From sequence record OZ335962.1: DNA of 64,000 nucleotides; one strand, 5' to 3'. The notes beneath the pieces were generated by a model. The model was given only the letters and a program-made list of their open reading frames with translations, had not been told where the DNA came from and did not search any database. The first letter of the stretch is position 1, and every line of letters starts with the position of its first letter. This DNA comes from a phage. Position numbers and translations under genes: made by a program. Shown piece after piece: positions 1,806 through 42,568 of this stretch.

Positions 1806-3488
1806 TTAAACCATTACAGTAAATCGACCAACTTTCTTCATTTGAAGATGCTGACCATATGCTTGTGGGTCGTGGTCTCTATGTGAAATAACAAAAACAT
1901 TAGTATTTTTTAAACTATCTAAAATAGTTGAAATAGCTTTTACACCTTCAACGTCTGTTGCTGAATCAAAAACTTCATCAAGAATTAACGTGTTTATTTT
2001 AACACCTGAAACTTTTTCAGCAATATCACGCCAAGTAAATAAAAGAGCAATATCAATTCGTGCTTTTTCGCCTTGACTGAATGAAGCATAACTAAAATCT
2101 TCACGACCACGGGATTTAATTGTCTCATTAAATTCTTCATCTAATGTAAACACATAATCCGCTTCCATTATTTTAAGATAATGATTAATCTGCTTATTAA
2201 ATAACGGAATGTACTTTTTAATAATAGCACCTTTAATACCAGAATCTTTGAGCATATCAGTCAAAATTCCTCTGTGGTATTTTTCCATTACTAAATTAGT
2301 TTTTGTCTTAACAATTTTATCAAGTTCTTCTTGAAGCAGTGCTATTTCATCAGCATGGTCAATAAACTCGGATGATGCTTTTTCTATAGCCGCTTTAACT
2401 TTTTTAGCTTTATCTACCGTCGTGATTAGAGATTGCTTTTTATTGCGAATATCATTCGCCAACGTCTGCTGGGTTTTAATATTATCTCGGTATTCATCAA
2501 CAAGAACTTTTAAATTATCACGATGTGTTGAAAGCTGTTCGAACGAATGTGTGCATTCAGAAACTTTATCTTTAATTTTAGAAACAACTTTATCACCGGA
2601 ACTTAATTGTGACAAACAGGTTGGACATAATCCACCTTCGTGATACATATTAATGACTTTATTATACGAGTCAATTTTTGATTTAATTAAAAATGCTTCT
2701 TGACCGATTTTATTAAATGCATCAGTCGGGTCTTCATCCAAAACAATATTAACTAATCTTTCATTAGCTTCTTCTATTTCCGATTTTAACGTTCTAGCTT
2801 CTTTTGCCAAATCATCATACATATTCTGCAGACGAGTAAGGTTATCACCAGTTAATTTTTTCTGGCGTTCAACGTTATCATTATATATTTTAATTTGCTG
2901 GATAATACTATCTTTTTTAACATCAAGCACTTGGTTTTGTGAATTTAATTCACGTATTAGTGCTTTATTAAGCTTATCCATTTCAGCTAATGTTCCTACC
3001 TCGAGTAGGTCTTCGACGAGTTTTCTTCTTGCAGGAGTGGATAAGCCCATAAAAGGGGTATATCCAGCCGTGCCGAGTACGACGATCTGTTTGAAACTGG
3101 CGTATGACATTCCGATAAGCTGTTCAAATTCTGCTTGGAAATCTTTACTGCTGGCAGATTCATTAAGACGTGTACCGTTAACGGTGATTTCGAAAACATT
3201 CGGTTTTTGTCCTCTTTTGATATAGTACTTTTTCTCATCATATTCCATCCACAGTTCAACTAAAAGTTCTTTCTTATTTGTGCTGTTTATTAATTGACCT
3301 TTCTTTACATCACGAAATGGCTTGCCAAAAAGCCCAAATGTGATGGCTTCTAACATAGTAGACTTACCACCGCCATTTCGTCCAGTAATAAGAGTTTTTT
3401 GAACCTTATCTAGTTGAATGTCAATAGGATTTCCACCTACTGACATTATATTTTGATACCTAACTCGGTTTAGTTTAAAATTCTTCAC
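1806..3488 (-). CDS. 46: Recombination endonuclease subunit gp46 (SbcC/Rad50-like ATPase)
   Basis: 560-aa ORF, N-terminal P-loop GRNGGGKST, long coiled-coil middle, C-terminal Walker B LILDEVFD; GTG start at 3488-3486 preceded by SD aaggaa and overlapping upstream stop (GTGA). Confidence 0.9.
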   Translation of the reverse strand: MKNFKLNRVRYQNIMSVGGNPIDIQLDKVQKTLITGRNGGGKSTMLEAITFGLFGKPFRDVKKGQLINSTNKKELLVELWMEYDEKKYYIKRGQKPNVFEITVNGTRLNESASSKDFQAEFEQLIGMSYASFKQIVVLGTAGYTPFMGLSTPARRKLVEDLLEVGTLAEMDKLNKALIRELNSQNQVLDVKKDSIIQQIKIYNDNVERQKKLTGDNLTRLQNMYDDLAKEARTLKSEIEEANERLVNIVLDEDPTDAFNKIGQEAFLIKSKIDSYNKVINMYHEGGLCPTCLSQLSSGDKVVSKIKDKVSECTHSFEQLSTHRDNLKVLVDEYRDNIKTQQTLANDIRNKKQSLITTVDKAKKVKAAIEKASSEFIDHADEIALLQEELDKIVKTKTNLVMEKYHRGILTDMLKDSGIKGAIIKKYIPLFNKQINHYLKIMEADYVFTLDEEFNETIKSRGREDFSYASFSQGEKARIDIALLFTWRDIAEKVSGVKINTLILDEVFDSATDVEGVKAISTILDSLKNTNVFVISHRDHDPQAYGQHLQMKKVGRFTVMV

Positions 3489-32416: not shown

Positions 32417-32890
32417 TTATTTGAATGATTTGACGTACTGAATAGAGCCTTTGCTATTCACGAAAGCGATTTTACCATTTTTGTTATACATGGTAGCAGT
32501 ACGCTGATAGCCATAAGTTTGCTTACCAGATTGATAACCAACTAGTGCGAAATTATCTTCACCCATTTTATTCTGCTTAGCGCGGATACGTTCATGACCG
32601 TGCGCCATAAGAACCTTAGCATCACCAGTTGCAATGGATCTACGAGTTTTTTCATCTTCAACTGTATTAACAAAGTCGTCAAATGAATCAAATTTAGCAT
32701 GAGATTTATTATACAGTTTTCCATCTACTGCATAATTATATCCCTGTACATCCATCTCAACTTCTGTACCATCATCTAATACAGCAGTGATTTTTTGACC
32801 TTTTTTAAATTTCAAAAGATCAGTAAAAGATTCAGCAATAATTTGAGAATTAATAGCTGCTTCAGTGATAAATTCTTGATATGTTTTCAT
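32417..32890 (-). CDS. Internal-protein-like protein with N-terminal capsid-targeting sequence
   Basis: 157 aa beginning MKTYQEFITEAAINSQIIAE (T4 internal-protein CTS consensus MKTYQEFIAE; I/L-x-E cleavage sites); late promoter TATAAATA 35 nt upstream. Confidence 0.6.
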   Translation of the reverse strand: MKTYQEFITEAAINSQIIAESFTDLLKFKKGQKITAVLDDGTEVEMDVQGYNYAVDGKLYNKSHAKFDSFDDFVNTVEDEKTRRSIATGDAKVLMAHGHERIRAKQNKMGEDNFALVGYQSGKQTYGYQRTATMYNKNGKIAFVNSKGSIQYVKSFK

Positions 32891-32899
32891 GTGTTTCCT

Positions 32900-33316
32900 T
32901 TAAATGTAAATATTTTTGCCGTAGTATTTATACCAGTGTGGCTTCATTAAAATTTTTTCATCGAGTCGTTGTTGACTCAATTTAATAGCCGATTTGCATT
33001 GGTTATAATCATTTTTCCATTCTGCTGGAATATCGCTGATGTCAGGAACTTCAGTATCTTTTATACTAAACCCACGTTTTAAGCATTCCGCTATAATGTC
33101 TGATTGACGCTTTCGCAAAAATTCTAACTTATCATAAAAGAACGTAACATGACCAGAACCTAAAATAAACTCGGAAGATATTTTAAAATCTTTAACCCGC
33201 TTACCATTTGCCACATGTTTACGAACTATACCAAAAACACGTGGCAATTCACGGTATTCTGCGATTAAATGTTGATCAGCAAGTTCAGATACTAAAGTCA
33301 AATTAATACGAGTCAT
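32900..33316 (-). CDS. denV: Endonuclease V (pyrimidine-dimer DNA glycosylase) DenV
   Basis: 138-aa [32 protein letters not shown]...; matches recalled T4 DenV. Confidence 0.9.
32925..32932 (-). promoter_or_regulatory. Late promoter (TATAAATA) for internal-protein-like gene 32417..32890
   Basis: Exact TATAAATA on minus strand, inside the 3' end of denV, 35 nt upstream of ATG 32890. Confidence 0.5.
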
Positions 33317-33340
33317 TTTATCCCTCCTAGAATTGTGAAT

Positions 33341-33369
33341 ATACTATCACAATTCTAGGAGAAAGTAAA
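33341..33369 (-). promoter_or_regulatory. Early promoter of denV inside a 15-bp perfect inverted repeat
   Basis: Minus strand (G)TTTACT - 17 nt - TAGTAT; IR ctcctagaattgtga (33324-33338) / tcacaattctaggag (33347-33361) flanks the -10. Confidence 0.55.
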
Positions 33370-33374
33370 CAACT

Positions 33375-33905
<531 letters not shown>

Positions 33906-34361
33906 TTAAAAGAGGCTGTTCATTATTCGGTAAAGTGAAGGACCCATCACATATTGCCACTGAGTACGAGGAATAAGAGCAAAAGCATCCATCTCTGGAA
34001 TCATAACGCCATCTTTATTTTCAAAATAAGACTCGCAATGGCAATTTCTAAACATCTCATGCTCTACTGGAATCGTATAATAAAATAACTGTAAGTCTTT
34101 ATTACTAGAATATTTAAATACACCTAAGTCTTCTAGAAGGTCTGGATTATAATCGATAAAACCAGTCTCTTCTGAGCATTCTCTTTTTGCAGCTTCCAGT
34201 GCATTCAAATCAGAACTTTCTACACGCCCCTTTGGAATATCCCAGCGATGTGCCATCATTCCAGGTTTACGAGAACCGGTAACTCGTCCCATAAATAAAT
34301 CTTTATCTTCTGTCATAAAGATAATACCAGCTGATAATGTTTTCATTTTAATTTCCTGCAT
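33906..34361 (-). CDS. nudE: Nudix hydrolase NudE
   Basis: 151 aa with Nudix box GRVESSDLNALEAAKRECSEETG. Confidence 0.8.
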   Translation of the reverse strand: MQEIKMKTLSAGIIFMTEDKDLFMGRVTGSRKPGMMAHRWDIPKGRVESSDLNALEAAKRECSEETGFIDYNPDLLEDLGVFKYSSNKDLQLFYYTIPVEHEMFRNCHCESYFENKDGVMIPEMDAFALIPRTQWQYVMGPSLYRIMNSLF

Positions 34362-34831
34362 TCAGTGATAAAATTATTTAAATTTTGAGCATATTTCTTT
34401 TCATCAAAAATCTTTTGTTGTCTGCGCATCCGCCATGGCATTTCAATGAACATGTACCATATTCCTGATAATATTGATGCTGTAAAAATATTAACAAGTA
34501 TAATTAAAAGAATCCAATCTCCCGTTCTGCCTACTGGACTTTCTCCAAAGAAGCAAAATACAAATGATGTCACAGGAAAACTAATAATATACCACAGAAT
34601 CATAATCTTATCTGTGAACCAATCAGCGTTCGTTAATTTAGCGCGACCGTTTCGAATACACACGAATTTATCATCTGTCGCAGTAGATGGCTTAGCTGCT
34701 TGATATCCCATTCTAAACTCCCTAATTAATCGTTTCTTTGTATCTTCAGAACAGCCGCTCCAGTCAACTCTATCAACTGAAATGCCATCGTCCCCATCAT
34801 CTAAATCATACCAGCGAGTTTTTAAAATCAT
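34343..34831 (-). CDS. Membrane protein (soluble N-domain plus 2 TM helices); full-length copy of a tandemly duplicated gene start
   Basis: 162-aa ORF; first 82 codons identical to 34832..35086. Confidence 0.5.
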   Translation of the reverse strand: MILKTRWYDLDDGDDGISVDRVDWSGCSEDTKKRLIREFRMGYQAAKPSTATDDKFVCIRNGRAKLTNADWFTDKIMILWYIISFPVTSFVFCFFGESPVGRTGDWILLIILVNIFTASILSGIWYMFIEMPWRMRRQQKIFDEKKYAQNLNNFITECRKLK

Positions 34832-35093
34832 TTAATTTATAATATACCACAGAATCATAATCTTATCTGTGAACCAATCAGCGTTCGTTAATTTAGCGCG
34901 ACCGTTTCGAATACACACGAATTTATCATCTGTCGCAGTAGATGGCTTAGCTGCTTGATATCCCATTCTAAACTCCCTAATTAATCGTTTCTTTGTATCT
35001 TCAGAACAGCCGCTCCAGTCAACTCTATCAACTGAAATGCCATCGTCCCCATCATCTAAATCATACCAGCGAGTTTTTAAAATCATTTAATTT
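34584..35093 (-). repeat. Perfect head-to-tail tandem duplication, 2 x 255 bp (34584-34838 and 34839-35093)
   Basis: Base-by-base comparison: both copies identical; flanks diverge on both sides; unit = 7 nt leader + first 82 codons of gene 34343..34831. Confidence 0.9.
34832..35086 (-). CDS. Truncated duplicate (N-terminal domain only, 84 aa) created by 255-bp tandem duplication
   Basis: Identical to the N-terminus of 34343..34831 then IIN-stop at the repeat junction; has the original SD aggaaa. Confidence 0.4.
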   Translation of the reverse strand: MILKTRWYDLDDGDDGISVDRVDWSGCSEDTKKRLIREFRMGYQAAKPSTATDDKFVCIRNGRAKLTNADWFTDKIMILWYIIN

Positions 35094-36443: not shown

Positions 36444-37037
36444 TTATTTCAGAGAATTAATGTATTCCTGAACATCGGCAGAGGTAGTTTCAACCCCAGA
36501 AATATTACCATTAAAGGTTTCAACTCGAGCAAGGGTATCTTCAATATCAACCTTAGTCAGTGCTGCAATTTCAACTACATCATCGGCAGTACTAATTCCA
36601 AGGGCATTTGCCGCACGAGTTTCACGGATATATTCCAATTTAACTGCAAGCTCTTGACGAGCATCATCTAACTCAACTACTTTCTTGGCGATTTCAATTC
36701 GCATTTCAGCATAACCGTCAGCCTTAGTAGTCAACTGCTCAGCTGTTCGACGATATAGTAAACCGAGTTTAGCATGCATTGTTACATCTTGGCCTTCGGA
36801 AAGAAGTTTACGAATTTCACGCTCTTTTGATTCGGCCTGTCGATTCTTTTCGATAACAAGTTCACGAATACGTTTTTCTTCGTTAATAGATTTAACAGAA
36901 GCAGTTTTTAGATCTTTAATTTTATCAAGTAGTTTTGCTGCTGCAGCAGTATACTGTTCTTCGACAGATAGATTTTTAGCCATAGCAGAACCAAGTTTAG
37001 TGCGAATAAACTCAACAATTTTCTTCAGTGTGTTCAT
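36444..37037 (-). CDS. Coiled-coil protein (weak PspA/IM30-like pattern)
   Basis: 197 aa, predominantly amphipathic helices; own early promoter 37112-37140; UUCG hairpin after stop. Confidence 0.5.
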
Positions 37038-37111
37038 AGTATTTCCTTAGGTTGATTAAGATTTAAAATCCGTAAAAGTAGTATTATACTCTATCATCAA
37101 GTTACAGGCTC

Positions 37112-37140
37112 ATAATATCTCAATCATGAGCCTATGTAAA
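37112..37140 (-). promoter_or_regulatory. Early promoter with inverted repeat
   Basis: Minus strand TTTACA - 17 nt - TATTAT; 8-bp IR aggctcat/atgagcct (37106-37113 / 37126-37133). Confidence 0.5.
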
Positions 37141-37141
37141 C

Positions 37142-37405
37142 TTATTTCATATTATTGAAATATTCTTCTGCGATTTCGTCGTTATCGTGGTAAACTTTAG
37201 AAGACAGTTTAACATAACCTTCTGCTGTGAACATATTAATCACAACCTTTACAGTATACCACTGTCCGTCTTCATTACCCATTACTGCGTAAGTTTCAAA
37301 CATCGGATGGTCAGGACCGATAACTTTAATATCATTCACTGTACGACCGAAATCTTCTGAAACGCATTTCATAAAGAAGTTGAACAGTTCGCCGTAATTA
37401 TCCAT
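37142..37405 (-). CDS. Hypothetical protein
   Basis: ATG 37405-37403 with SD ggag, downstream of promoter 37450-37478; ORF-track start 37459 lies upstream of the predicted start site. Confidence 0.5.
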   Translation of the reverse strand: MDNYGELFNFFMKCVSEDFGRTVNDIKVIGPDHPMFETYAVMGNEDGQWYTVKVVINMFTAEGYVKLSSKVYHDNDEIAEEYFNNMK

Positions 37406-37478: not shown

Positions 37479-37612
37479 CCGTTTTGTGAAAAAATTTTTA
37501 AAAAGTTTTATGGAATTCTGGGGCAGGGAGGGGCAATTAAAAGGTAGGATAATATATTATAAAGGGTATAAACTAAATGATGCCTAGAGAGGCCCGGAAA
37601 GGCCTAGATACC

Positions 37613-37640
37613 AAAAAGCCCCAACCTTTTGGTCGGGGTT
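37613..37640 (-). terminator. Intrinsic terminator (copy 1 of direct-repeat pair)
   Basis: RNA AACCCCGACC-AAAA-GGUUGGGGC + UUUUU; near-identical to 38172-38198. Confidence 0.6.
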
Positions 37641-37647
37641 AAGAATG

Positions 37648-38121
37648 TTATTTGATTTGTTTAGCAGACCAAATGCGGTCTTTAATAATTTTTTGAATGT
37701 CTTCAACATACTCAAGAGAGTGAACGTGTGGATTATCTTTGAAACTATAAGCACGGGCTAACTTTTGGCCTTCGGTTTTGATTACTAAAAGCTCTTTAAG
37801 GATAGCTTCATATTTAGCGATAATTCCTTTAACGATATTTTTTTCTTGTGCCGCTTTAGGATCTGCTTTAGGAGCAGGTTTACCCGAAGGCTTTGCAAAA
37901 GCAGCTCCAGTAGCAACTAAACTTTTCCAGGCCATACTAACTGCATTTCCCGTAAATCCTTCTGCTTTCATGTCGCGAGCAAATTGGAATCGTGATTCGT
38001 CAGAAGCATCTTTATAGGAATATTTACCCGCTGCAATGGCTGCTTTTGCGACAGCTTGAATTTCGGTGCTAGATGCTTCATTTAACACCGCTTCATTTAA
38101 AAATTGAGCATATGATTTCAT
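37648..38121 (-). CDS. Internal-protein-like protein (CTS-like N-terminus) in terminator-flanked cassette
   Basis: 157 aa beginning MKSYAQFLNEAVLNEASSTE; late promoter TATAAATA 38169-38162 and SD aggaa; Ala/Lys-rich. Confidence 0.55.
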   Translation of the reverse strand: MKSYAQFLNEAVLNEASSTEIQAVAKAAIAAGKYSYKDASDESRFQFARDMKAEGFTGNAVSMAWKSLVATGAAFAKPSGKPAPKADPKAAQEKNIVKGIIAKYEAILKELLVIKTEGQKLARAYSFKDNPHVHSLEYVEDIQKIIKDRIWSAKQIK

Positions 38122-38161
38122 CTTATTTCCTGTTTTAATTCGTGGATTTAATATACTACTA

Positions 38162-38169
38162 TATTTATA
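38162..38169 (-). promoter_or_regulatory. Late promoter (TATAAATA) for internal-protein-like gene 37648..38121
   Basis: Exact TATAAATA on minus strand immediately after terminator 38172-38198, 41 nt upstream of ATG 38121. Confidence 0.5.
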
Positions 38170-38171
38170 CT

Positions 38172-38198
38172 AAAAAGCCCCAACCTTTCGGTCGGGGC
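38172..38198 (-). terminator. Intrinsic terminator ending the tRNA/stable-RNA operon (copy 2)
   Basis: RNA GCCCCGACC-GAAA-GGUUGGGGC + UUUUU. Confidence 0.6.
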
Positions 38199-38505
38199 TA
38201 AGCCTTGCGGCAACCTTGTCGGGGTTCCACCTGCTAAGGCAAGTGTTTGTACGAAACGCCGGGATTCGAACCCGGTTATTAAGTAGTTGACGCTACTCAA
38301 TATTTTTAAAAGGCCATATCTCGACCATATCCGAACGTTCCGTCAAAAACGCTACTCGGCTTACGGCAAAGATATTTCCTCGAATCGATAATTCGGTGCG
38401 CCGTTTCAGCTGTGATAGTAAAGAACCAGAACACAGTAAAACTGTGGGAGGAACTATACTCCAGGGAACATCAGTCCGACGACTTACCGGTAACGACCCG
38501 GTTTC
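38199..38505 (-). ncRNA. Candidate stable/structured RNA region with a tRNA-like element (about 38252..38342) ending at an intrinsic terminator
   Basis: Non-coding 300 nt downstream of the tRNA operon; T-arm-like ccgggttcgaatcccgg with flanking pairable acceptor-like strands cggaacg/cgtttcg; no convincing anticodon arm; T4 has species 1/2 RNAs at the equivalent place (recalled). Confidence 0.3.
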
Positions 38506-38856
38506 TTAATATTCTTTTAAAGTATCAATCTGTTCACGACGTTTACGCCATAAATCAATTGCTTCATACGCAGATTCAGCATTTCTAATTAGTCGGCATT
38601 TGTGTAAAGACTTATGATTTTGATATTGTGTAGATAACGGAATTTTATCTAAAAGGTCTTTACGTTCAAAGTATTCATAACCATCTAAGCCAAATGAACG
38701 ATTTTTAAGAAATTGCCAATGACCGTATTCGTTTTCGACATAAACATAATCTGCGTGCTGATAAAGCAAATTAATTACACGTTCAGAAATAACAGTGTCA
38801 TTATGATTAAAATAGAATGTTAAATCATGAACTACTAAATAAACATTACCTTTCAT
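38506..38856 (-). CDS. Hypothetical protein between tRNA cluster and stable-RNA region
   Basis: 116-aa ORF, ATG 17 nt downstream of tRNA-Arg 3' end. Confidence 0.5.
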   Translation of the reverse strand: MKGNVYLVVHDLTFYFNHNDTVISERVINLLYQHADYVYVENEYGHWQFLKNRSFGLDGYEYFERKDLLDKIPLSTQYQNHKSLHKCRLIRNAESAYEAIDLWRKRREQIDTLKEY

Positions 38857-38872: not shown

Positions 38873-38948
38873 TGGTCGAGGCAGTAGGGATCGAACCTAC
38901 GACCCAGGACTTAGAAGGTCCTTGCTCTTCCTTCTGAGCTATGCCTCG
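38873..38948 (-). tRNA. tRNA-Arg (anticodon UCU)
   Basis: 76-nt cloverleaf read by hand: acceptor cgaggca/tgcctcg, anticodon loop cuUCUaa, T-loop ttcgatc, encoded CCA. Confidence 0.85.
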
Positions 38949-38952
38949 GATT

Positions 38953-39027
38953 TGGCGGACGTGATAGGATTCGAACCTATAACCAATCGCTTAACAGGCG
39001 ATCGCTCTGCCATTGAGCTACACATCC
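38953..39027 (-). tRNA. tRNA-Asn (anticodon GUU)
   Basis: 75 nt: acceptor ggatgtg/cacgtcc, anticodon stem atcgc/gcgat loop cuGUUaa, T-loop ttcgaat, encoded CCA. Confidence 0.8.
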
Positions 39028-39031
39028 AAAT

Positions 39032-39118
39032 TGGTGGGGAGTGATGGAGTCGAACCACCCGAGTCGCAATGACAATGGATTTACAGTCCACACCGCTACC
39101 TCTACGGGATAACTCCCC
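39032..39118 (-). tRNA. tRNA-Tyr (anticodon GUA), class II with long variable arm
   Basis: 87 nt: acceptor ggggagt/actcccc, anticodon stem gtgga/tccat loop cuGUAaa, 15-nt variable arm, T-loop ttcgact, encoded CCA. Confidence 0.75.
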
Positions 39119-39127
39119 AAATTAATT

Positions 39128-39202
39128 TGGTGGCCCTGGGTGGAATTGAACCACCATCTGGCGATTATGAGTCGCTTGCTTGAACCTTCCAGCTACAGGG
39201 CC
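39128..39202 (-). tRNA. tRNA-Ile/Met (anticodon CAU)
   Basis: 75 nt: acceptor ggccctg/cagggcc, anticodon loop cuCAUaa, T-stem ggtgg/ccacc, encoded CCA; T4 homolog reads AUA after lysidine modification. Confidence 0.8.
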
Positions 39203-39203
39203 T

Positions 39204-39279
39204 TGGTGCTGATTGACGGAATCGAACCGCCGACCTTCTCATTACAAGTGAGTTGCTCTACCTACTGAGCTAAATCAGC
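39204..39279 (-). tRNA. tRNA-Thr (anticodon UGU)
   Basis: 76 nt: acceptor gctgatt/aatcagc, D-stem gctc/gagc, anticodon loop cuUGUaa, T-loop ttcgatt, encoded CCA. Confidence 0.85.
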
Positions 39280-39284
39280 AAAAC

Positions 39285-39374
39285 TGGCGGAGGCGATAGG
39301 ATTTGAACCTATGAGTCGCCGGAGCGACTGCCGGTTTTCAAGACCGGTGCATTAAACCACTCTGCCACGCCTCC
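39285..39374 (-). tRNA. tRNA-Ser (anticodon UGA), class II
   Basis: 90 nt: acceptor ggaggcg/cgcctcc, anticodon stem ccggt/accgg loop cuUGAaa, long variable arm, T-loop ttcaaat, encoded CCA. Confidence 0.85.
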
Positions 39375-39376
39375 AG

Positions 39377-39450
39377 TCTCCATACAAGGATTTGAACCTT
39401 GGACCTCCTGATCCCAAATCAGGCGCTCTACCAAACTGAGCTACACGGAG
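39377..39450 (-). tRNA. tRNA-Pro (anticodon UGG), CCA not encoded
   Basis: 74 nt to discriminator: acceptor ctccgtg/tatggag (two G-U pairs), anticodon stem cctga/tcagg loop uuUGGga, T-loop ttcaaat; 3' flank is ctg, not CCA. Confidence 0.8.
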
Positions 39451-39460
39451 TAAATTAAAT

Positions 39461-39534
<74 letters not shown>

Positions 39535-39539
39535 AAATT

Positions 39540-39626
39540 TGGTGCGAGAAGTGGGACTCGAACCCACAAGGAAATCATTCCGCAGCATTTTAAGTGCTGT
39601 GCCTTTACCAATTTGACCATTCTCGC
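39540..39626 (-). tRNA. tRNA-Leu (anticodon UAA), class II
   Basis: 87 nt: acceptor gcgagaa/ttctcgc, anticodon stem cagca/tgctg loop cuUAAaa, long variable arm, T-loop ttcgagt, encoded CCA. Confidence 0.85.
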
Positions 39627-39627
39627 G

Positions 39628-39700
39628 CTGGGAATAAAGGACTCGAACCTTTGCATCCTGGAATCAAAATCCAGTGCCTTACCAACTTGGCTAATTCCCA
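39628..39700 (-). tRNA. tRNA-Gln (anticodon UUG), CCA not encoded
   Basis: 73 nt to discriminator: acceptor tgggaat/attccca, anticodon stem ctgga/tccag loop uuUUGau, T-loop ttcgagt; abuts tRNA-Leu 5' end. Confidence 0.8.
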
Positions 39701-41182: not shown

Positions 41183-41210
41183 TTTATTCTCCTCAGTAGT
41201 TGATAGGGTA

Positions 41211-41239
41211 ATAGTATCACTACCCCATCTAAAAGTAAA
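41211..41239 (-). promoter_or_regulatory. Early promoter
   Basis: Minus strand TTTACT - 17 nt - TACTAT; IR gggta/taccc around -10. Confidence 0.55.
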
Positions 41240-41240
41240 T

Positions 41241-41474
41241 TTATTTTTTACGAAAAATTGATTTATTTTCTGCTGCCCATTTTTCAATAACTGCAGCAGG
41301 ACCAGTAACAACAATTTTATCACCGTAATCTTCTGCGGCGAGTTGACCGAAATTATCTAATGCATCACGAAGAACTCCATGAGGCATTTCACCCATTTTA
41401 TCTTTCTTGCCGGTGTAAATAAACTCAACTTTTACATCAGAAGATTCAGCGATAAATTCTTGATAAGTTTTCAT
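41241..41474 (-). CDS. Internal-protein-I-like small protein with CTS
   Basis: Begins MKTYQEFIAESSDVKVE; ATG 41474-41472 (alternative ATG 41486 adds METK); ORF-track start 41543 lies upstream of promoter 41512-41540. Confidence 0.55.
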   Translation of the reverse strand: MKTYQEFIAESSDVKVEFIYTGKKDKMGEMPHGVLRDALDNFGQLAAEDYGDKIVVTGPAAVIEKWAAENKSIFRKK

Positions 41475-41511
41475 TTTAGTTTCCATTCGATTGTTTTGTT
41501 TTGATAGGGTA

Positions 41512-41540
41512 ATAGTATCACAACTAAAACCGTATGTAAA
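41512..41540 (-). promoter_or_regulatory. Early promoter
   Basis: Minus strand (G)TTTACA - 17 nt - TACTAT; shares 30-nt upstream block gtaaacaactttgtgaaattattttaaatc with promoter 41842-41870. Confidence 0.55.
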
Positions 41541-41553
41541 CAACTTTGTGAAA

Positions 41554-41811
41554 TTATTTTAAATCTTCTAATCGTTTCTTCATCTTAGAACCATTTTTAG
41601 CAATTTCTCCTGCATCGGAGCATAATGCTAAAAGTGCTTTAACTTTCGTTTGGTCTCCTTTAAAAGATGAAGGATCTACTGCAGCAGCAAGTTCTTTAAT
41701 ACGAGAGAAAAGACGCTCAGCTTCAGCTAAAGCCATTCCAAGCTTTACTTCCATACCGTGGGAAGATTCAGTGATAGTAGTTTTTGCAGCAAACTCTTTG
41801 AAAGTTTTCAT
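41554..41811 (-). CDS. Internal-protein-like small protein with CTS-like N-terminus
   Basis: 85 aa beginning MKTFKEFAAKTTITESSHGMEV; SD aggaaa; own promoter 41842-41870. Confidence 0.5.
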   Translation of the reverse strand: MKTFKEFAAKTTITESSHGMEVKLGMALAEAERLFSRIKELAAAVDPSSFKGDQTKVKALLALCSDAGEIAKNGSKMKKRLEDLK

Positions 41812-41841
41812 TTTATTTTCCTAATTAATTTTGATGAGGTA

Positions 41842-41870
41842 ATAGTATCACTACCTCATCAGCATGTAAA
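41842..41870 (-). promoter_or_regulatory. Early promoter inside a 10-bp perfect inverted repeat
   Basis: Minus strand (G)TTTACA - 17 nt - TACTAT; IR tgatgaggta (41832-41841) / tacctcatca (41852-41861) with -10 in the loop. Confidence 0.55.
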
Positions 41871-41883
41871 CAACTTTGTGAAA

Positions 41884-42568
<685 letters not shown>

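Follow-up and report, generated by a model that had tools for sequence, protein, structure and literature searches.

Accessory genes that travel between conserved neighbors have been described in several kinds of phage, and three of these systems come close to the locus considered here. The morons of lambdoid phages (Hendrix and colleagues) are single accessory genes with their own promoter and terminator, located between two conserved genes. Their movement is ascribed to illegitimate recombination, with no conserved flanks involved, and their expression to prophages. In PeSL cassettes, a terminator hairpin and a promoter flank a variable ORF (Arbiol et al. 2010, PMC2839356; Comeau et al. 2014, PMC4122927). 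They are known from RB49/phi1-type phages, where ORF shuffling by these elements is established (PMC2839356). The third system comprises the internal proteins (Ips) of T4, namely IPI, IPII and IPIII, together with IpIV-IpVI/Ip7 of its relatives, whose genes have late promoters and whose products begin with an N-terminal capsid-targeting sequence (CTS) containing an L/I-x-E site for the gp21 protease (Black; Repoila et al. 1994; PMC12373910). Experiments with IPIII assigned targeting to CTS positions 4 and 7 and processing to positions 8 and 10 (PMC9026906), and the lack of similarity among Ips beyond the leader is the norm for the class (PMC12373910). In 2025, T4 Ip1, Ip2 and Ip3 were shown to inhibit three different Type IV restriction enzymes of the GmrSD type, one each (Silas et al. 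2025, PMC12373910), results that turned the diverse Ip genes of T-even phages, most of them uncharacterised, into an obvious place to look for new anti-defence proteins. The same study speaks of "the two Ip loci".

The window analysed here, a 64-kb stretch of phage DNA (64,000 nucleotides; OZ335962.1), is a Tequatrovirus (T4-like) genome. On its (-) strand, between the terminator of the stable RNA gene rnaC and the gene e.8, lies a 157-aa gene, here called gene A, that in our judgement is probably a packaged, CTS-bearing internal-protein gene in a cassette shuffled by recombination. This reading is based on the gene itself, its motifs, the repeats around it, the states of the locus in other phages, purifying selection and synteny. 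Judged against the T4 annotation, the gene order on the (-) strand runs from ten tRNA genes through a 116-aa ORF and the rnaD and rnaC homologues to the cassette, and from there to e.8, e.6 and e.5. The homologues of rnaC and rnaD form the left-hand border (38250..38505, (-) strand, approximate coordinates transferred from the T4 annotation). The right-hand border, recognized by comparison with T4, is e.8 (37142..37405, (-) strand), which has a sigma-70-like promoter of its own at ~37478-37450 (-). Approximately 1.1 kb around the cassette has matches in 743 phage records, nearly all of them Tequatrovirus, at up to 98.5% identity.

The neighborhood contains further variable features. The tRNA cluster (38873-39700, (-) strand) has 10 genes (Arg, Asn, Tyr, Met, Thr, Ser, Pro, Gly, Leu and Gln) and lacks the homing endonuclease gene segB, compared with 8 tRNAs plus segB in T4. 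The 116-aa ORF between rnaD and tRNA-Arg (38506-38856, (-) strand; PHROG 3355, unknown function) has no counterpart at that place in T4 and is also found in T2, DalCa and RB69 (RB69ORF150c). Gene e.7 is missing (37037-37142), leaving a gap of only ~104 nt between e.6 (36444-37037) and e.8. This interval is another variable slot, occupied in relatives by T4 e.7 or by genes of the RB32ORF130c or RB14ncORF134c type. The e.2-like gene contains two tandem copies, 99% identical, of a 255-nt unit (34579-35088), which results in ORFs at 34343-34831 and 34832-35086 with identical 80-residue N-termini; the duplication may be genuine or may have arisen in assembly.

A preliminary description of this DNA, made from the sequence, had placed an internal-protein-like gene at 37648..38121. 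The gene is there, on the (-) strand, starting MKSYAQFLNEAVLNEASSTE and assigned to PHROG 2280, with a Shine-Dalgarno sequence, AGGAAA, visible 4 nt ahead of the ATG (38126..38131, (-) strand). It was found in 512 phage records, and its orthologues include fD1 g140, fPS-2 g131c and RB32ORF133c, the last at 96% identity (GenBank DQ904452, Karam laboratory annotation). Against five orthologues, dN/dS is 0.05-0.11, evidence of purifying selection from which we conclude that gene A encodes a functional protein. The predicted mature product is small and basic (pI ~9.6), like IPII and IPIII. It combines a Lys/Pro/Ala-rich linker (KPSGKPAPKADPKAAQEK) with long helices, the latter taken from an AlphaFold2 model that is all-helical and of moderate confidence (mean pLDDT 74.5). 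Every database record examined labels the protein hypothetical, and none annotates it as an Ip.

The claimed resemblance of the N-terminus to the CTS of T4 internal proteins is borne out. The leader MKSYAQFLNE resembles MKTYQEFIAE, the start of T4 IPII and IPIII, and all four of the critical residues are present (Tyr4, Phe7, Leu8 and Glu10). Under the CTS rules (PMC9026906), codons 1-15 (38077..38121, (-) strand) specify a predicted capsid-targeting propeptide, MKSYAQFLNE followed by AVLNE, with a putative cut after each. Two L-x-E sites for the prohead protease gp21, recognized from the sequence, end at these points (L-N-E at Glu10 and again at Glu15), and the mature protein is accordingly predicted to begin at Ala11 (AVLNEASSTEIQAVAK) or Ala16 (ASSTEIQAVAK). 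PST IpIV likewise has two such sites; the RB27 allele of gene A has M-T-E, not L/I-x-E, at the predicted cleavage site. In a six-frame translation of the window, the pattern MK.[YF]..[FLIM][ILVM].E occurs 3 times against an expectation of 0.05, the remaining two occurrences being an IpIV-like and an IpVI-like gene. Moreover, gene A orthologues in four genera keep the motif, including those in which another sequence has taken the place of the C-terminal half of the protein. When gene A is compared with the named Ips by BLASTP and hhalign, only the first ~12-23 residues align and the mature part shows no similarity; the named Ips fall into PHROGs 3155, 8111 and 3499. Because the known Ips lack mutual homology, homology to a named Ip is not a strict requirement for membership of the class.

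Other Ip-like genes occur elsewhere in the window. At 32417-33869 on the (-) strand, the lysozyme gene e is directly followed by denV and then by the IpIV-like gene (157 aa, DUF7412/PHROG 3155), whose own TATAAATA (32932-32925) is embedded in the 3' end of denV; T4 genes ipII and ipIII are absent. At the ipI locus (41200-41900, (-) strand) there are an IpV-like gene (41554-41811; MKTFKEFAAKTTITE) and the IpVI-like gene (41241-41474; MKTYQEFIAE). Each is preceded by a near-identical early-promoter block of ~60 nt (AATTTCACAAAGTTGTTTACAT...GTGATACTATTACC), with a third, partial copy before the next ORF, and these repeated blocks resemble PeSLs.

The late promoter proposed for gene A is confirmed as an exact match to the T4 type, TATAAATA, 40 nt upstream of the ATG (38169..38162, (-) strand). 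In this AT-rich window TATAAATA by itself is not enriched (13 observed, 10.7 expected), so the promoter call rests on position and on conservation in relatives. It is kept in 9/9 other Tequatrovirus carriers examined and even in the Klebsiella Jiaodavirus KpV477; Dhakavirus and Mosigvirus carriers have AATAAATA at this position.

Promoter and gene are enclosed by two direct repeats. These had been reported as 30 bp long, with three differences, and as complete intrinsic terminators; the differences and the terminators stand, and the length is 36 nt (33/36 identical). The upstream copy, T (38167..38202, (-) strand), defined by alignment, folding and the junctions of empty sites, is the intrinsic terminator of the tRNA/rnaD/rnaC unit. 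Its counterpart T' (37608..37643, (-) strand), defined by repeat and terminator analysis, is the terminator of gene A. Both scored as (-) strand terminators; each has a 4-nt loop and a CTTTTT tail, the stem lengths are 10 and 8 bp, and the fold energies are -24.9 and -17.3 kcal/mol. Identity between the two reaches past the stem into non-structural flanks (TTA upstream, GGTAT downstream). Given that the first three bases of TATAAATA (TAT) lie inside the end of T, the junction of the cassette falls within the promoter box. A 31-nt core pattern, with Y at the two differing positions, was found only at T and T' in the 64-kb window when <=3 mismatches were allowed. With an expectation of 0.00 in shuffled sequence, a chance repeat was rejected.

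The preliminary description suggested comparing T4-like phages for the presence or absence of the cassette. This comparison reveals four states of the locus: empty, A, B and A+B. T4, T2, T6 and Yersinia phage PST are empty. When T4 is aligned with the window, both flanks match and 559 bp are lacking, which is exactly one repeat plus gene A plus the promoter. The T4 junction, which T2, T6 and PST share, reads ...GGTTGGGGCTTTTTGGTAT followed immediately by CTAAGCC..., and the single terminator of T4 lies ~50 nt past the 3' end of rnaC. It had been considered that the repeats might be present in all relatives regardless of gene content, an objection that fails: the four phages without the gene have exactly one terminator copy, and T' occurs only where gene A occurs. 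In RB32, RB27, fPS-2, ECp13 and most isolates, gene A lies between two terminator copies; RB32, RB27 and fPS-2 have A only. RB14 and RB69 have only a different gene, B, and DalCa, F25 and others have A followed by B. Of the records with the best junction matches, those in the single-copy (empty) form were mostly re-sequenced stocks of T2, T4 and T6. The frequencies of the locus states are estimates from sampled rows, and IMG/VR, searched by the rnaC anchor, yielded just 6 loci.

Gene B encodes 187 aa, starts MKTYAEFLTE and is found in 165 records. Upstream it has a late box with one mismatch, (A/G)ATAAATA, and downstream a hairpin that differs from T but has the same GGGCTTTTTGGTAT tail. In A+B genomes the T'-to-B junction is exactly the T-to-B junction of RB14, and all junctions occur at GGGGCTTTTT(G/A)GTAT, in other words at the terminator tail plus late-promoter motif. 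PHROG 2280 matches both A (E=2e-60) and B (E=2e-53) over their full length. However, BLASTP and hhalign align A with B only in the leader (first ~12-23 residues), and for this reason we treat the two genes as otherwise unrelated; PHROG 2280 may group heterogeneous proteins that have the CTS in common. Cassette genes are in decay in some genomes: a frameshift divides gene B in RB69 (ORF148c/149c; 905-1467 of the RB69 locus), and the gene A homologue of KpV477 is a pseudogene with a premature stop (2495-3030 of the KpV477 locus). At the same terminator site, a Gaprivervirus-like contig (IMGVR_UViG_2706795408) has a late-promoter-driven ORF for a 184-aa DUF7338 membrane protein directly after T; in VR25, a relative of this contig, the site is empty, and Dhakavirus IME341 has a decayed remnant of the DUF7338 ORF beside gene A.

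Looking beyond Tequatrovirus, gene A occupies the same position in Mosigvirus APCEc01, Dhakavirus IME341 and Klebsiella Jiaodavirus KpV477, following the terminator that closes the stable-RNA unit and with the same junction of terminator and late promoter. The gene is thus syntenic in four Tevenvirinae genera. The junction GGGGGCTTTTTAGTATAAATA is kept in KpV477 though the stem differs, and the Jiaodavirus gene A has a different downstream terminator. The shared position indicates that gene A is old at this site. The junctions taken alone fit either insertion or deletion, but given this age the empty allele is more plausibly the product of deletion between T and T' than the ancestral state. 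Tequatrovirus copies are of either the CCCCGACC or the CCCCAGCC type, and the types at T and T' are variously combined; in Mosigvirus and Dhakavirus both have CCCCTTCC. Such lineage-wise co-variation, seen in the aligned sequences, points to continuing exchange between the copies by recombination. The earlier view of the repeats as a footprint of cassette insertion or exchange therefore gains from the locus states, the junctions and this co-variation, with the amendment that the empty state is likelier a deletion than an ancestral condition. Mobility by a transposon or homing endonuclease was rejected: neither kind of gene is present in the cassette, and a target-site duplication would be shorter than 36 bp.

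Taken as a packaged internal-protein gene in a shuffled cassette, gene A would be a self-contained late transcription unit consisting of late promoter, gene and terminator. Late in infection, gp55-RNA polymerase would start just downstream of TATAAATA, the adjoining terminator of the tRNA/rnaC operon would block read-through from upstream, and the transcript would end at the second terminator copy. The 10-residue N-terminal CTS would carry the protein into the scaffolding core of the prohead. There gp21 would cut after Glu10, and probably Glu15, to leave a basic protein of ~142-147 aa (pI ~9.6) in the head, and this processed form would probably be ejected with the DNA. By analogy with Ip1-Ip3, its likeliest job would be to neutralise a host defence as the DNA enters. 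For the locus itself, the recombination system of the phage could use the near-identical terminators as homology to delete the cassette, take it up again and combine it with gene B, with a polymorphic third Ip locus as the outcome.

Support for a place in the virion comes from Yersinia phage fD1, in which g140 (157 aa, 67942-68415), 96.8% identical to the gene A product, is listed as particle-associated by LC-MS/MS of purified virions (PMC8309999, Table S3). The specificity of this dataset is low, as 113-137/277 phage proteins and 672 host proteins were called particle-associated (PMC8309999). Because about half of the phage proteins are flagged, we regard the detection as weak-to-moderate support. 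It could be due to carry-over from the lysate, in which case gene A would be an ordinary unpackaged late gene and its CTS-like start a coincidence or a relic. Arguing for this, the particle-associated set includes apparently non-structural neighbors such as e.6, and family and fold searches with gene A gave no lead. Counter to this, the CTS pattern is far above chance expectation (0.05), the leader with Tyr4, Phe7, Leu8 and Glu10 all retained is conserved across four genera despite replacement of the C-terminal half, and the unrelated neighboring cassette B bears the same signal. We consider the unpackaged alternative very improbable. Somewhat less improbable, though still unlikely, is that the protein enters the head for a structural purpose, as an accessory of the head core or scaffold or to condense DNA; it would then be targeted and cleaved like gp67, gp68 or IPIII and act in head assembly or DNA packing, not against host defences. 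IPIII mutants show aberrations of head assembly (PMC9026906), and a basic protein with a Lys/Pro/Ala-rich linker, long helices and strong purifying selection would suit such a role. Yet gene A is dispensable, being absent in T2, T4, T6 and PST and a pseudogene in KpV477. Accessory genes for counter-defence typically show such presence/absence polymorphism and cassette exchange, here with an unrelated CTS gene, and defence targets are now known for all three T4 Ips (PMC12373910).

The other question concerns the repeats. T and T' could each be a terminator needed in its own right, their likeness due to one old duplication or to convergence, with no part in the gain or loss of genes. Every late unit needs a terminator, the Jiaodavirus gene A ends at a different one, and cassette B uses an unrelated stem, all of which is in keeping with independence. 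Against it stand the identity beyond the stem in non-structural flanks, the empty genomes that carry the exact single-copy product, and the junction between T' and B in A+B genomes that equals the one between T and B in B-only genomes. T and T' also share lineage-specific stem variants. Further, homologies of <50 bp suffice for T4 recombination, and mini-circles are formed by the ORFs between PeSLs, an analogous case (PMC2839356). Independent terminators thus seem to us an improbable explanation, and we retain the reading of gene A as an internal-protein gene in a cassette that recombines through its terminators.

The function of the gene A product is approached here by analogy. Searches gave only a sub-threshold match in Pfam, no matches in NCBIfam or PADLOC, nothing below E=0.5 in a PDB sequence search and, for a Foldseek comparison of the model with BFVD and PDB, only the protein's own family, with nothing else below E=1. 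An exhaustive profile search over 1.84 billion representatives placed 13 proteins in the family; with so few, the family appears confined to T4-like phages and offers no functional lead. Based on the behavior of characterised Ips, we put an anti-defence role for the gene A product at about even odds, and a GmrSD-type target specifically would be a rather doubtful guess.

Recognition of A and B as CTS-bearing, late and probably injected proteins provides two concrete anti-defence candidates. By the sampled-row estimate, gene A is present in most sequenced wild Tequatrovirus isolates and missing from the laboratory phages T2, T4 and T6, and gene B shows the same pattern in fewer genomes. The annotation of ~500 genomes, many of them from candidate phages for therapy or biocontrol, should improve as a result. 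The naturally empty site of T4 and T2 makes knock-in of A or B straightforward. More generally, the locus, with its empty, A, B and A+B forms, is a clean natural example of short regulatory repeats driving gene shuffling in virulent phages.

Three points appear to be new: that A and B are CTS-bearing late genes, that the locus has four states, and that the shuffling motif has a late-promoter version. A literature search by locus tag found no relevant paper. The original ip catalogue is reportedly that of Repoila et al. from 1994, and gene A may be listed there. The interval between rnaC and e.8 would be a third Ip locus, one that has apparently gone unrecognised. In a wider and more tentative proposal, which we think possible but hold with less than even confidence, this third locus would have been overlooked because T2, T4 and T6 are empty, A (157 aa) and B (187 aa) would be injected inhibitors of host defences other than the GmrSD variants that Ip1-3 inhibit, and the terminator hairpin with TATAAATA would be a late-promoter analogue of the PeSL and the recombination module that shuffles genes for injected proteins among the Tevenvirinae.

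Compared with the known systems, gene A has much in common with the T4-type Ips, from IPI, IPII and IPIII to IpIV-IpVI/Ip7. It shares their leader with its L/I-x-E gp21 site and their late promoter, and like them its product is small, basic, non-essential, variably present and without likeness beyond the leader. Unlike the named Ips, to which it is non-homologous, it is sited between the rnaC terminator and e.8, outside the two Ip loci of the literature. The RB32ORF133c record (DQ904452) describes the same gene and notes that it is 'flanked by 34 bp imperfect direct repeat', but is silent on the CTS, the late promoter, the terminator nature of the repeat and the polymorphism of the locus. The likeness to PeSLs lies in the retention of a single motif by empty genomes, in a unit with its own expression signals and in a stem of the GGGG...CCCC type. 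The PeSL promoter, by definition, is sigma-70-like and early (PMC2839356), whereas that of gene A is gp55-dependent and late, of the TATAAATA type, and the repeated part at this locus is essentially the terminator, unlike that of PeSLs. In layout, gene A also resembles a moron, from which it differs by its homologous flanks and by its residence in a virulent phage.
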